From the IMG/VR virus record IMGVR_UViG_3300042291_000228, positions 1 to 64,000 of that record: a stretch of 64,000 nucleotides of DNA; one strand, written 5' to 3'. Within the stretch, counting starts at the first letter, position 1, and every line of letters begins with the position of its first letter. The notes beneath the pieces were generated by a model. It searched no databases and was not told the DNA's origin. It worked only from the letters and a program-made list of their open reading frames with translations. The position numbers were made by a program, and so were the translations under genes. This stretch comes from a virus. Shown here piece by piece: positions 59,307 to 63,846 of this stretch.

Positions 59307-60314
59307 TCATACGGACAAAGTTTTAATTTCATTCGAATACCTTGCATTCAGTGGCTCGGCATAGGCCTGTGCTTGATCGGCAATCTTTTTAAGATCATAT
59401 AGATTGCAAAATTTCATTAATCTAATACCAACTTGACTAATATTCTTATTTGCACTTGTTGCTGTAGCAATAGTTTCTGTAATGATGTTTTTAATTTCTT
59501 CGGGCTGTGCAGAAAGATCAATTAAAATACGATTACGTTCGTAATCATCTAGCACACGATGTTCTTTACCTTCGTGGTCGGACCAGCGCTGAAGCATGAG
59601 ATTGTTCCACGCATAGCCTTTTAAATCTCTGTCACCGTAAGCCTCACGGAGACCAACCTTATTTTTTGTGCCTTTTTCCCGTACTCCCGGATATGCAGAG
59701 AATACATTGTCTGAGGTATCGCCTCGCATACACTTCTCAAAGAGTAACCACTGGGGGTCCGGAATGGCTTTTGGTTCTTGAGTCTTTTTATCAATAACTC
59801 TCTTACCTTTTGCATCAAAAATACCTTCATGTGTAATAGTAGTTTCCATAACGCCGTTAAATTGGCGTACATTAGGTGCAATCAATTGTACAAAGTCTGT
59901 ATCGGTTGAAATGATAACATGGTCATCGTTTGGATGTGTCTGTATCCATCCAGCAATTAAATCATCTGCTTCTAGGCGTGAATGTTGTAGTACTGTGCAG
60001 TTTGTCTTTTCTGTTACAAACTCTTTGAATGTATCAAATGCTTCCCAAAACACTTTCTCTTCTTCTGCTTCACGTTCTGTATGTGCGGCACGACTAGCGG
60101 CTCTTTGTGCCTTGTAAGGCTTATAATGATCTTTACGCCAGCTACGTCCCTCGAGGCAGAACACCACATGACTTCCACCAAAGTCTTGCCACGCTTTTTT
60201 AATACTGTTTAAAGTAATATGAAAGGCCATACCTAGTTTGATATCAGCGTCACCGTTGATAACGTGCCTAGCACGAAAGAAAGTGTTTGCAGTATCAACT
60301 AAAATATATGTCAT
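59307..60314 (-). CDS. rnh: RNase H / 5'-3' flap exonuclease, T4-like
   Basis: ILVD, SWRK..Y..YK..R, LEADDLIA, ISTDTDFVQL, GDTSDNV. Confidence 0.9.
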   Translation of the reverse strand: MTYILVDTANTFFRARHVINGDADIKLGMAFHITLNSIKKAWQDFGGSHVVFCLEGRSWRKDHYKPYKAQRAASRAAHTEREAEEEKVFWEAFDTFKEFVTEKTNCTVLQHSRLEADDLIAGWIQTHPNDDHVIISTDTDFVQLIAPNVRQFNGVMETTITHEGIFDAKGKRVIDKKTQEPKAIPDPQWLLFEKCMRGDTSDNVFSAYPGVREKGTKNKVGLREAYGDRDLKGYAWNNLMLQRWSDHEGKEHRVLDDYERNRILIDLSAQPEEIKNIITETIATATSANKNISQVGIRLMKFCNLYDLKKIADQAQAYAEPLNARYSNEIKTLSV

Positions 60315-60778
60315 AGATTCTTTTTTCTAATTTGATTAATGTCAACAACGCCAGTGTTTACAGCGCCACCAAAATCACCGTCAACTACCACATTAGCACA
60401 TAGTTCACGGAACCAACGATCTACAATTTCTTCGTCTTTGTCTCCGTCAAAACCATATCCCTCTTGCTTTAATTTTAACACAAAATGCTCGTTCCAGTCA
60501 AGCTCAAAAAAGCCATTACGTATGTTATCTTTATTAATATGTGTATTGAGAACACCTACCCAGGGTTCTTTTAATTTGGTTGCACGATCTTTTGGTGCTA
60601 ATTTTATTAATGCTTCTTGTTCTAGAGCAACGGTTGTCTTTTGTTCTACGATTGCAATCTCATCAGTTTTTTGATCAGCTAGTTTTGTAGCTTCTTCAAT
60701 GGCTGTTTTAGTATCGATAAGTTGTTGCTCTAATTTATCGATACCCATTATTTTTTTAAAGAATTTTGTTAGCATCAT
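60311..60778 (-). CDS. hypothetical protein
   Basis: ATGA-coupled to queE and rnh; GFFELDWN..VDRWF motif. Confidence 0.65.
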   Translation of the reverse strand: MMLTKFFKKIMGIDKLEQQLIDTKTAIEEATKLADQKTDEIAIVEQKTTVALEQEALIKLAPKDRATKLKEPWVGVLNTHINKDNIRNGFFELDWNEHFVLKLKQEGYGFDGDKDEEIVDRWFRELCANVVVDGDFGGAVNTGVVDINQIRKKNL

Positions 60779-61629
60779 GTACCCCACTCATTTTTAAATA
60801 GTGGCACTTGTAGTCTATCGCTATAACGCCAGCCACGTTTCATAGCTGCCAATGCTACATTCTTTGCGTTAAGTGTATAAACACTTTCTACACCACCTAC
60901 TGGCATTAGATATATATGACCGGTAAACCCAGCATGTCGAAATGCACCTGCCGCACACTCTGCATCTTTAATATCTTCTTCCGTTGCCACTACAAATTTC
61001 AAATATGCTGTACCAACTTGTTCGTACTCGCATACAATCTCTGGACAGATAGCTTCTTCCCACTTCTCACCACTTGCTGGCAGTTTAGCACTTACACTAA
61101 ATGTAACTTCTCTGCCTACTACGCTATTCCATTTAGCCAAGTATGCTTTAAATTCTGGTGTAAGCTTCTGAGTACCGTTTGTTTCGAAGGTAATCTCTTT
61201 CAAGTCACGCATCTTAGTATTGTTTAACAAGTCTGGGTAAGCACGTTGCCAGCCTAGCAACGGCTCTCCGCCTGTGATGACCAAGTGTTCATCGACCCAG
61301 TAATCCTGTGGAAGAATTTCCATAATGCGATCTGTGATAGCTTCGCTTGTAAGCATCGGCGACAAATCTTTAAAGTCTGGATGCCAACTAGCATAACTGT
61401 CACAGCCTGTGCTAACTAGGGGTAAGTCTTCATACTTCTGAAAAGACTCTATTATTGTATGTGTAGCCGCAATGTCAGTTGCTTCGTGACTAACTTCTCC
61501 ACGCGGCATACCAAAGCCAGCACATTTGAAATTACAACCAAATGTGCGCAGAAACACACTCGGTACACCCATATATCTACCCTCTCCTTGTATAGAGTAG
61601 AAAAGTTCCGCTATCTTAATCTTTGACAT
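60775..61629 (-). CDS. queE: 7-carboxy-7-deazaguanine synthase (radical SAM)
   Basis: ELFYSIQGEG..G.PSVFLRTFGCNFKC, CDS, VITGGEPLL, ETNGT, LKFVV, YLMP, SDRLQ. Confidence 0.88.
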   Translation of the reverse strand: MSKIKIAELFYSIQGEGRYMGVPSVFLRTFGCNFKCAGFGMPRGEVSHEATDIAATHTIIESFQKYEDLPLVSTGCDSYASWHPDFKDLSPMLTSEAITDRIMEILPQDYWVDEHLVITGGEPLLGWQRAYPDLLNNTKMRDLKEITFETNGTQKLTPEFKAYLAKWNSVVGREVTFSVSAKLPASGEKWEEAICPEIVCEYEQVGTAYLKFVVATEEDIKDAECAAGAFRHAGFTGHIYLMPVGGVESVYTLNAKNVALAAMKRGWRYSDRLQVPLFKNEWGT

Positions 61630-62818
61630 CTGTATCCTTTATTATTTCTAAGTTTAACATATTATTCGATAAATGTAAATTCTTTTGGAGAGTTTTACAA
61701 TTATCCCCGTGCCATCTATTATAGTTGGCTGTATTTGATAAAACTTTACCACAGTGTTTACAAGTTTTTTTTGGTTTGTCTAACATTCTTTGTCTTCGCA
61801 TTTCTAACATTTCAGGAGATAATGTTTTACCTAATCTGCGTTCACTCATTGCTTTGCGTTCTTCTTCAGATTTTTTCTTTCCAAAATTAGGATTGTTTTC
61901 TCCTCTTGTCCACCACCTATCTACTTTCTTGTTACTTTCAGAAATCTTCCTTCTGTGTTCTTCGGATTTTGGGCGTTTTCCTACTTCTCTGGATGCTTCA
62001 CGCTGTCTGTCTTTACCTTCCGGAGTATATACTTTGTTTTTAGCCGATGCTCTCATATGTTCAATCTGCTCCGGCGTGTAAATTTCTTTCCAACTTTTGC
62101 CTTTTCGAGCAGATGCCGCTTCTCTCATTTTTTCTGTATGGGCAGGATCTCGTTTTACACCTTTTGTTCTACCACTAGTATTTTTGCGTTGTTTTATCCC
62201 TTCAGGTGAATTAAAAAATGCTTGACGTTTAGCTATCATCATTTCTTTGTATTCTGGATCAGCCCAACGTTTAATGATCGCGGCACGTTGTCTTTCTTTT
62301 CCTTCAGGAGTTACTTTAGACGGTTTACCCCAATTAGGATTTTCTGGGCCGCGTTTAAACTCTTTTAACTTACTTTTCTCGCCAATCTTCTTTTTAGATT
62401 CTTCTGAGTGTTTTCGTCCTACCCAAGTGCCGCCTTCTTTGGCATACTTCTCTTTTAACATTTGAGAATAGTGTTTTCTAAATGTTTCATACATCCTACT
62501 GGAAATTGTATAGGTATGATTTACGCCGCGTTCCTTAGTAGTCATTTTGTTAATGAATGTATTAAACGCAAATGCCATTTTGCTACCGTATATACCTTCA
62601 AACTTCATTTTCCATAACAATGCGTGAGCAATGTAATGTTCGCGGGCAGTTAGTTGGACTACGTTTGATTTGATATTATCGCCGCCGAAACTACGAGGAA
62701 TAATATGATGTGTTTCTTTATACCCTTGTATAGAACCTCGTAGTTGTGCTTTGTGTATGAGGGATTCATACCACTTACTATATTTGCTTTCTACAAATTT
62801 TACGGGCCAGTTTATCAT
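61616..62818 (-). mobile_element. free-standing HNH homing endonuclease with NUMOD3-like repeats
   Basis: ETHHIIPRSFGG....N.V.LTAREHYIAH; HSEESKKKI, KSEEHRRKISE repeats; CKHC..RWHGDNC zinc finger. Confidence 0.88.
61651..61679 (-). promoter_or_regulatory. sigma70-type promoter for queE inside the 3' end of the HNH gene
   Basis: TTTACA-17 nt-TAAACT with TG extension, followed by an AAGGA RBS. Confidence 0.55.
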
Positions 62819-62861
62819 CAATGTTAAGCAGAATTAGAACAGCATACCTATATAGTGTTCT

Positions 62862-62888
62862 TCACTCTGTAATTTTAATCTTACTCAT
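62862..62888 (-). pseudogene. orphaned original 5' end of queE (MSKIKITE*)
   Basis: ATG AGT AAG ATT AAA ATT ACA GAG TGA matches the QueE N-terminus MSKIKIAE at 7 of 8 residues; ATGA-coupled to the upstream gene. Confidence 0.75.
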
Positions 62889-63172
62889 AAGTTAATTTCA
62901 CTTTCAAATATGTTTGACCATTTTTTTAATTTAGCAATTTTGTTATCTGCTGATACAAGCACTTCTTTTTTGTCTACTAGATTGTACACAATACAAAGAT
63001 CAATCATGGCCTGTAAATCTCCTAACTCTTCTGCTAGATGTTGTCTATTAGTAAGTGGCTTACCAGGTTTGACATTATCTAAACCGAATCGACTAATCTT
63101 GCTGATAGCAACAATTACTTCTGCACATTCCTCTTGAGTAATGTCTAGAATTTCTTTTTCTTTATTATTCAT
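62885..63172 (-). CDS. MazG-like NTP pyrophosphohydrolase
   Basis: QEECAEV..SK..RFG, LAEELGDL. Confidence 0.75.
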   Translation of the reverse strand: MNNKEKEILDITQEECAEVIVAISKISRFGLDNVKPGKPLTNRQHLAEELGDLQAMIDLCIVYNLVDKKEVLVSADNKIAKLKKWSNIFESEINL

Positions 63173-63178
63173 ATTACT

Positions 63179-63207
63179 ATTATACATTCTTTTTTGATAA
63201 AGACCAA
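63179..63207 (-). promoter_or_regulatory. sigma70-type promoter, probably leaderless transcript
   Basis: TTGGTC-17 nt-TATAAT, then 6 nt to ATG 63172. Confidence 0.6.
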
Positions 63208-63344
63208 GAGCCGTCTTGATTATCTTTCCAAACTAACTCATCGCCTTCTTTCCAACCTGTTTCTTCGAGCATATCTTCAGGGAAGGGTAATATCAAGTCA
63301 CCTGTTTCAGGATCGTCTTGTAGTTCAATTGTCCAATTTTTCAA
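63180..63344 (-). CDS. AbrB/SpoVT-like small DNA-binding protein
   Basis: GDLILPFPEDMLEETGWKEGDELVW; TTG start with AGGAG RBS. Confidence 0.6.
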   Translation of the reverse strand: MKNWTIELQDDPETGDLILPFPEDMLEETGWKEGDELVWKDNQDGSWSLSKKNV

Positions 63345-63846
63345 TGTTAACTCCTGATTTTTTAAGGAACTCAATTCCTGAATCATCTCTATAGTTTTCA
63401 CTATAGTAGACACCATTTATGCCAGTCTGATATATAAGTTTGGCGCATTCAATACAAGGGGCATGAGTAATGAAAATATCAGCACCATTGCCGCTGTCAT
63501 TCGACTTTGCTAATTTTGCAATAGCATTTGATTCAGCATGAAGTACCTCTGGCTTGGTTTTTAAAGCATATCTCCTAGCATATCCTATATCGGGATCAAA
63601 GTCTTCCTCTTCAAAAGGCCAACGTTCGTAGATCTCATCGGGGTCTAGCCAGCCGCCTGCATCTCGGCTCATATAATCTCGGTATTCACAATCGTTATCC
63701 CAACCTGCCGGCATACCATTATAGCCAATAGAGATAATACGATCATCTTTAACTACAATAGCACCTACGTGAAGTCTACGTGCTGAACTGAGTTCCGCGA
63801 ATATCTTTGCGGTCTTCATATACGTTTGTTTGAACTTTTCCTTCAT
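63325..63846 (-). CDS. cd: dCMP deaminase
   Basis: VGAIVVKD..IISIGYNG.P, HAESNAI, PCIEC. Confidence 0.92.
   Translation of the reverse strand: MKEKFKQTYMKTAKIFAELSSARRLHVGAIVVKDDRIISIGYNGMPAGWDNDCEYRDYMSRDAGGWLDPDEIYERWPFEEEDFDPDIGYARRYALKTKPEVLHAESNAIAKLAKSNDSGNGADIFITHAPCIECAKLIYQTGINGVYYSENYRDDSGIEFLKKSGVNIEKLDN

Follow-up and report, generated by a model that had tools for sequence, protein, structure and literature searches.

A viral queE gene probably re-started by an HNH/NUMOD3 endonuclease cassette that replaced its 5' end

Why should a viral gene begin twice, with an endonuclease gene between the two starts? This question is raised by queE in the window, by which we mean the whole stretch of 64,000 nucleotides (nt) that was analysed, positions 1-64,000 of the IMG/VR virus record IMGVR_UViG_3300042291_000228 (102 kb). 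All genes in the part studied lie on the minus strand, and nucleotides of queE are numbered from the queE ATG. queE (61629-60775) encodes a QueE-like radical SAM protein of 284 amino acids (aa; PHROG 2076, E=3.2e-50). It is preceded by an intact gene for a 400 aa HNH/NUMOD3 endonuclease (62818-61616; ATG at 62818, stop at 61618-61616) and, upstream of that gene, by a stub resembling the queE start. An earlier, sequence-only reading had reported that the stub encodes MSKIKITE followed by a stop (62888-62862) and queE starts MSKIKIAE, that 5 of the first 8 codons differ, and that the stub ATG at 62888 overlaps the TGA of a mazG-like gene (ATGA). All of this was confirmed by reading the minus strand, the differing codons being 2, 5, 6, 7 and 8. 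The same reading proposed that an intron-less endonuclease cassette had entered the 5' end of queE and left the old start as a stub, and that core of the proposal holds across relatives. We conclude, with a probability of roughly 0.85, that the locus contains a terminus-replacement homing cassette, that is, an HNH/NUMOD3 unit located inside queE after nt 69 that re-starts queE without splicing.

About 120 related loci formed the comparison set. IMG/VR holds hundreds of related queE loci, of which the best 80 were examined (77-96% protein identity); among these 80 no close homologue of the window HNH gene was found at the site. A distant homologue, 30% identical, lies upstream of queE in L053 (= L109). 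Near-identical DNA was not found in GenBank phages, where the best protein match (49%, Synechococcus phage BUCT-ZZ01) has no HNH gene at the site. The order dcd-orf78-mazG-queE is common to seven loci. In L016, L021, L033 and L034, which have no HNH gene, the mazG stop overlaps the queE ATG as ATGA and queE has an AGT- or AGC-type start, as the sequence-only reading had predicted for empty sites. Because empty-site relatives couple mazG directly to queE, the mazG-like gene of the window (63187-62885), which encodes a nucleoside triphosphate pyrophosphohydrolase (Pfam MazG, E=5.5e-5; PHROG 4856, E=1e-22), is the resident upstream neighbour of queE. The window stub lies in the same ATGA-coupled position behind mazG as the queE start of L021 and matches it at 24 of the first 25 nt. 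The stub is a real relic of queE and no chance match.

Where the cassette entered queE is revealed by relatives with longer stubs. L082-L088 carry HNH genes 61-64% identical to that of the window over the best segment, each directly 5' of a queE that begins ATG TCA. In each of them queE nt 1-69 (codons 1-23) stand upstream as a stub, followed by a 21-nt leader and then the HNH ATG; stub length is 71 nt in the L082 group. The window stub (62888-62840, 49 nt) runs from its ATG through 8 codons to a TGA at 62864-62862 and a remnant beyond. In alignment A3 it corresponds to the 69-nt stub of the relatives minus an internal gap of 20 nt, with several point changes, mostly G to A. The longer stubs and this alignment therefore place the insertion point after nt 69 (Pro23|Ser24), inside the most conserved QueE motif, and not after codon 8 as first supposed. 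The 8-codon peptide is what a 20-nt deletion left of a 69-nt stub. Stubs vary among loci as resident alleles do, and the replacement copies are alike.

The imported cassette begins on the left with the leader (62839-62819 in the window). In all occupied loci the leader is identical or has 1 difference, even where the HNH proteins are only 38% identical. Compared with queE nt 70-90, it matches at about 12 of 19-21 positions if two gaps are allowed, which looked by eye no better than chance. The leader was also considered as a T4 MotA box and rejected, the spacing being wrong. Codons 7-9 of intact stubs form a perfect inverted repeat of 8-9 nt with the leader (L085:903-911/958-966 and equivalents); predicted folds of this repeat were no better than those of shuffled sequences, and RNA structure around the leader and HNH start gave z-scores of -0.2 to -1.4, none significant. 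A terminator-like hairpin of 11 pairs including G-T (61537-61564, minus strand; queE nt 66-93) spans the insertion site; this may be coincidental, or the hairpin may belong to the nuclease target.

An insertion inside a coding sequence at a conserved motif is also what many phage introns display, and the stub could then be exon 1, joined by splicing to queE after nt 69. The intact 23-codon reading frame of the relatives' stubs would fit such an exon, and the NUMOD3 region has a weak NCBIfam match to 'group I intron endonuclease' (E=1.6e-4, below the cut-off). Against a group I intron or other spliced element, Rfam gave no match at E<=1 on either strand of 60500-63500, and no group I ribozyme core was found there. 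With 21 nt between stub and endonuclease open reading frame (ORF) and 0 nt between that ORF and the new start, no space is left outside the ORF to hold a ribozyme. Downstream, queE is a complete gene that has an ATG and a ribosome-binding site of its own. With its stop, its 20-nt deletion and a frameshift, the window stub is not usable as an exon. We give splicing almost no credence. The homing cassette that we favour would make splicing unnecessary, as queE is re-started downstream of the insert.

The new start of queE was examined for its origin. The imported segment covers queE nt 1 to ~75 (codons 1-25; 61629-61555) and starts ATG TCA. The cassettes of L085, L086 and L109 share 97% identity with this segment over nt 1-60, after which identity to these loci drops to ~70% and the remainder of queE instead resembles L002 (85-97% per 60-nt window). 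Markers specific to the cassette end at nt 54, and by nt 79 the sequence is clearly of resident type. Thus the extent of the altered segment could be mapped, with the switch from cassette type to resident type between nt 54 and 79. The idea that this segment had been purposely recoded was not upheld. Compared with the commonest empty haplotype, the replacement copy uses the other codon family at each of the segment's six-fold-degenerate codons, of which there are four (Ser2, Ser12, Arg18 and Ser24). That TCA at codon 2 is a recoding peculiar to the cassette was rejected: six empty alleles behind other upstream genes have it (L014, L015, L055, L057, L060 and L063), and a further one has TCT (L064). 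The replacement start is a foreign natural allele. Four of the TCA-type empty alleles (L014, L015, L060 and L063) lie behind one upstream gene family, which probably marks the lineage that donated the segment.

A donor-derived gene end and a displaced fragment of the resident gene therefore flank the endonuclease gene. The mobile unit consists of the 21-nt leader, the endonuclease gene or genes, the ribosome-binding site, and foreign queE from nt 1 to ~75-105. It brings its own copy of queE codons 1-23 from another phage lineage, and the first 69 nt of the resident gene are pushed upstream as a non-functional stub.

Movement of such a unit is recorded in the empty L062 and the occupied L145, two relatives from different data sets. 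Over the stub and 600 nt upstream their identity is 99.6%; from queE nt 106 on it is 99.8-100% for more than 1300 nt. The insert (leader, HNH gene and a second ORF), queE nt 1-105 and stub positions 63 and 66 are all that sets them apart, so that this pair presents a presence/absence polymorphism in near-identical genomes. The last 7 nt of the L145 stub are donor-type and the rest is that of L062. Since stub nt 63 and 66 are donor-type, the left crossover fell inside the 69-nt stub homology, and the identity from nt 106 on places the right crossover just after queE nt 105. The L145 stub served as the left homology arm; the corresponding stub of the window has decayed. This pattern is the signature of double-strand-break repair from an occupied donor. 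Provided that the two cassettes have the same target, the break would lie roughly at nt 63-79 and hence at the insertion site. We infer that in a mixed infection the endonuclease would cut an unoccupied queE near nt 63-105 and that the break would be repaired from the occupied genome, with the queE body as right homology arm and the donor's stub as left arm. A stub arm would render the cassette independent of the upstream gene.

Junctions were counted by exact-pattern scans. The left junction was found in 9 IMG/VR and 10 metagenome contigs, and the right junction, consisting of the ribosome-binding site and the TCA-type start, in 27 IMG/VR contigs. The left junction comprises 13 distinct haplotypes with at least six kinds of upstream neighbour, including three diverged mazG-like genes, a phosphoribosyltransferase gene, two other ORF families and a promoter region. 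Because the junction is identical everywhere it was formed once, which would also be expected if a single illegitimate insertion or duplication had been inherited vertically, with no homing and the stub as debris. The age of the window copy and its decayed stub fit that history too. It does not account for the same junction standing behind so many kinds of upstream gene, or for queE bodies behind that junction that differ by 20-27% aa. Nor does it explain why L062 and L145 differ solely by the insert and conversion tracts, one of which enters the stub, or why chimeric alleles without an endonuclease gene exist (L002). A one-off insertion is thus very improbable, and repeated homing remains the better explanation of the junctions.

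The arrangement in the window is also found in lake water. At least 90% of the words sampled from the stretch are present in 17 lake-water metagenome runs from 2020-2024, and the occupied allele is unchanged in lake metagenomes of those years. Contigs from X6 (2020), X17 (2020) and X13 (2022) bridge 61369-63125 without a mismatch, and contigs in three runs span both junctions with 0-2 differences. Because contigs of independent lake metagenomes bridge the locus, the arrangement is no assembly artefact. In related contigs, also from X13 and X17, 61623 and 62899 are connected by 15 nt. These 15 nt are the mazG end and an AGC-type start, and so represent empty alleles of related phages in the same water. 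X18, labelled metatranscriptomic, has short contigs ~96-97% identical to the ends of the HNH gene (61619-61715 and 62425-62840); being short and from related variants, they are uninformative on splicing or transcript starts. One X18 contig turns into different sequence at 61715, which suggests another cassette variant in a different lake sample.

The 400 aa protein belongs to PHROG 655 'homing endonuclease' (E=3.1e-44) and also matches PHROG 12434 'HNH endonuclease' (E=7e-6). The HNH motif lies at ~62609-62731, and its residues H37, H38, N52, H61 and H65 are invariant among relatives (alignment A2). The HNH family profile matches the McrA HNH motif (E=0.005); Pfam HNH models gave no above-threshold match to the window protein, and a PDB sequence search with it gave no match. 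NUMOD3, a DNA-binding repeat, is matched in Pfam at residues 282-325 (E=2.7e-11; 61844-61975), C-terminal to the nuclease domain. The gene is single-copy in the 102-kb record. Its ratio of nonsynonymous to synonymous substitution rates (dN/dS) is ~0.3 in comparison with L082 and L085, and it is under purifying selection. At HNH relatives outside queE (L089-L100) no flank duplication above shuffled controls was found, in a test that gave the positive control L082 a score of 62, the null maximum being 28.

Many relatives have a second ORF of 216 aa, ORF216, between the HNH gene and queE (L086:1583-2233, L109:1356-2006; also L121 and L119), and in others ORF216 stands alone before queE. No Pfam or PHROG family matched ORF216. 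The Atlas clusters nearest to it carry SegE_GIY-YIG (score 0.93), which is no more than a lead. ORF216 is preceded by a TATAAATA or CATAAATA motif that resembles a T4-type late promoter. The last 25 codons of the window HNH ORF (61693-61616) are homologous to the ORF216 3' end at the nucleotide level with a 57-nt gap (alignment A1), and the window form therefore arose by deletions that fused both genes. The window cassette is an older derivative from which the Seg-like gene was deleted, its tail now serving as the HNH C-terminus. The relatives form a series of decay stages. The first form is stub-HNH-ORF216-queE; ORF216 is reduced to a remnant in L085 and L128; only HNH is present in the window and the L082 group; only ORF216, with traces of the HNH 3' end, is present in others; and L120 and L135 have no endonuclease gene yet retain a cassette-type queE start. 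L002, also without an endonuclease gene, is chimeric, with resident-type nt 1-27 and cassette-type nt 28-75.

These forms raise the question of which endonuclease drives the element. ORF216 is always the gene nearest queE and has the SegE_GIY-YIG lead. It is found alone directly before a TCA-type queE start in ten IMG/VR contigs with four distinct upstream contexts, and it moved together with the HNH gene in L062/L145. A Seg-like ORF216 might therefore target queE and have driven the spread, the HNH gene being a passenger or second invader and the window cassette a fossil. We consider this unlikely. HNH-only cassettes with the same two deletions are found behind mazG (window) and behind a phosphoribosyltransferase gene (L082-L084), which suggests spread after ORF216 was lost. 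The ORF216-only loci retain the HNH 3' end and spacer traces and so look derived. The purifying selection on the HNH gene and the failure of ORF216 to match any Pfam or PHROG family likewise count against ORF216 as the driver.

A cassette that replaces a gene start must supply signals for expression. The HNH ORF overlaps the start of queE by 14 nt, and the ribosome-binding site of queE, AAGGA (61639-61635), lies 5 nt 5' of the ATG. AAGGA is invariant in alignment A1, is part of the conserved right end of the cassette and is inside the pattern found in 27 IMG/VR contigs, so the replacement start does have its own ribosome-binding site as first noted. The promoter assigned to the same region fared less well. 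TTTACA-17-TAAACT, with an extended-minus-10 TG, is present at 61679-61651 on the minus strand. It is a weak match to consensus (9/12 positions), and such sites are common in the region, with 16 against 7.2 expected. Hexamers and spacing are invariant in five cassette sequences and 7/17 spacer positions differ (A1); since the site is in coding sequence, this invariance lends plausible but modest support to a promoter. The site derives from the 3' end of the deleted second endonuclease gene. No Shine-Dalgarno sequence precedes the HNH start. That start lies 13 nt after the stop of intact stubs, and translational coupling from the stub to the HNH gene is possible. The empty loci L013 (660-712), L017, L031 and L036 have a consensus TTGACA-17-TATAAT that ends ~7 nt upstream of the queE ATG, so that the queE mRNA would be leaderless or almost so.

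The surrounding genes of the window are a mosaic (60311-63846). The gene for deoxycytidine monophosphate (dCMP) deaminase (dcd, 63846-63325, minus strand) is first in the local order, followed by a 78-aa ORF (63416-63180, minus strand; PHROG 661), the mazG-like gene and the cassette. As listed, the 78-aa ORF overlaps the end of dcd by 92 nt (63325-63416); its true start is probably a later codon. The next gene 3' of queE is virion-protein-like (60311-60787). The dcd-orf78-mazG segment is nearest L005 (91% nt), the queE body is nearest L002 (96% aa, 89% nt), and the gene after queE is nearest L016/L021 (89% aa), with mosaic breakpoints at both ends of queE. Because the upstream genes, queE body and downstream gene are nearest different relatives, the endonuclease gene lies at a mosaic boundary. 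Five NCBIfam QueE equivalogs match queE (E=2e-15 to 3e-10), all far below their cut-offs, the best-matching stretch being residues 3-37, the part affected by the cassette. The Pfam Radical_SAM match is below threshold. The product is, to judge from these matches, a QueE-like protein of the phage 7-deazaguanine pathway. Inserts of 0.3-2.4 kb lie 3' of queE before the next conserved gene in L004, L043, L054, L068, L077 and L081, and a 922-bp insert separates mazG from queE in L078 (L078:2013-2935). They were considered as endonuclease genes and rejected since they encode ordinary accessory ORFs.

The closest counterparts of this locus are found outside phages. WHO elements of Torulaspora/Lachancea yeasts home into FBA1 and replace its 3' end; the displaced fragment acts as a recombination arm and the replaced end confers resistance, allele-specific cleavage having been shown experimentally (Coughlan et al. 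2020; PMC7282813). As in the queE locus, the endonuclease gene lies beside its target gene without an intron or intein, each homing event swaps one gene end for a donor variant, and the displaced end stays as a homology-arm fragment that is free to decay. Chimeric evolution of the gene, and elements that cluster and then decay, are further likenesses. The geometry is a mirror image, with the 3' end replaced in WHO and the 5' end in queE. Because the 5' end is replaced, the queE cassette must also bring translation start signals. WHO enzymes are eukaryotic, intein-like LAGLIDADG proteins rather than HNH, and their cleavage is experimental, whereas the queE cassette is known from sequence comparison. 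Fungal mitochondrial mORFs (Allomyces atp6; Glomus atp6, atp9, cox2 and nad3) bring in a foreign C-terminus, the native one surviving as a remnant (PMC3630166), and related duplicated gene fragments are known in Tremella (PMC7315562). Here too the endonuclease ORF moves together with a foreign version of one end of a gene, the native end persists as an unexpressed duplicate, and the displaced native copy is nearer the relatives' alleles than the imported copy is. In contrast to the queE cassette, mORFs are organellar, encode LAGLIDADG or GIY-YIG enzymes, replace the C-terminus and are often in frame with the host gene.

Known phage endonucleases differ in how they treat the target gene. Those within phage genes split them, as in Aeh1 nrdA, T4 genes 39/60 and gp43 (PMC2988022). 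The T4 MobA cassette, as summarized in bioRxiv 10.1101/2022.08.31.505936 from Bonocora et al. 2011, comprises mobA, a gene 60 N-terminal extension, a bypass and a short target-homologous region. As far as that summary goes, it resembles the queE cassette as an HNH homing endonuclease inside a conserved phage gene that carries homology to the displaced target segment and has inserted independently in many phages. By the same summary, the topoisomerase gene is split into two polypeptides and a 50-nt translational bypass is needed, whereas queE stays whole, needs no bypass and keeps the old segment as a stub. Free-standing Seg and Mob enzymes of T4 spread by 'intronless homing' (SegB, PMC2330249; MobE, PMC2790892; review, PMC2988022). 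They share enzyme families with the queE cassettes (HNH with NUMOD3-like DNA-binding repeats, and Seg-like), as well as double-strand-break repair with co-conversion of flanking markers and mosaic boundaries beside conserved genes. T4 enzymes differ in that they sit between genes, rely on homology in both neighbours, and duplicate no part of the target gene, the T4 review mentioning none (PMC2988022). Our literature search turned up no published example in phages of a 5' end that is replaced while its stub is retained.

Several points weigh against a homing cassette in the window. The closest empty sites are ~90% identical, so that none is a near-isogenic partner for the window. Being short and diverged, the window stub would now be a poor homology arm, and this copy may be immobile at present. 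The cleavage target and cut position are deduced only from conversion tracts, and in L062/L145 two endonuclease genes were co-transferred, so that the HNH enzyme need not be the driver. The stub of L142 is cassette-type instead of resident-type, and that of L139 is without its first ~25 nt and is fused to unrelated upstream sequence; both go beyond a simple one-step homing model. By analogy with WHO elements it is plausible that the replacement copy is immune to its own nuclease. However, the cassette-type stub of L142 would not be expected if replacement nt 1-69 confer immunity, the window queE is resident-type by nt 79 and thus has no evident source of protection, and every 'recoded' codon, TCA included, is present in some empty allele. 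Divergence between stub and copy would lessen loss of the endonuclease gene by repeat recombination. A more ambitious claim would unite these elements: that the stub is a portable left arm for any queE, that the spelling of the new start blocks both self-cleavage and excision between repeats, and that the cassette is a phage counterpart of WHO elements, one of a widespread, undescribed class of phage homing cassettes that replace 5' ends, and still active in the lake against co-occurring empty alleles. This larger claim is tentative, and we would wager slightly against all its parts holding together.

To our knowledge, phage homing endonucleases are thought to spare the host gene in three ways: by residing between genes, by residing in an intron or intein, or by splitting the gene into two working pieces. 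The queE locus would represent a fourth solution in phage, in which the gene start is replaced and the displaced start becomes a homology arm. Comparable arrangements have been described from yeast nuclei and fungal mitochondria. One consequence is that the cassette would be independent of gene order; another is that the 5' end of queE would become a chimeric region of fast turnover. Short stub ORFs also arise that mislead annotation. Because the relatives offer near-isogenic empty and occupied alleles, mapped crossovers and decay stages, the life cycle of the element is directly testable. Since the locus belongs to the 7-deazaguanine DNA-modification pathway, exchange at this site may move alleles of that pathway between phages.

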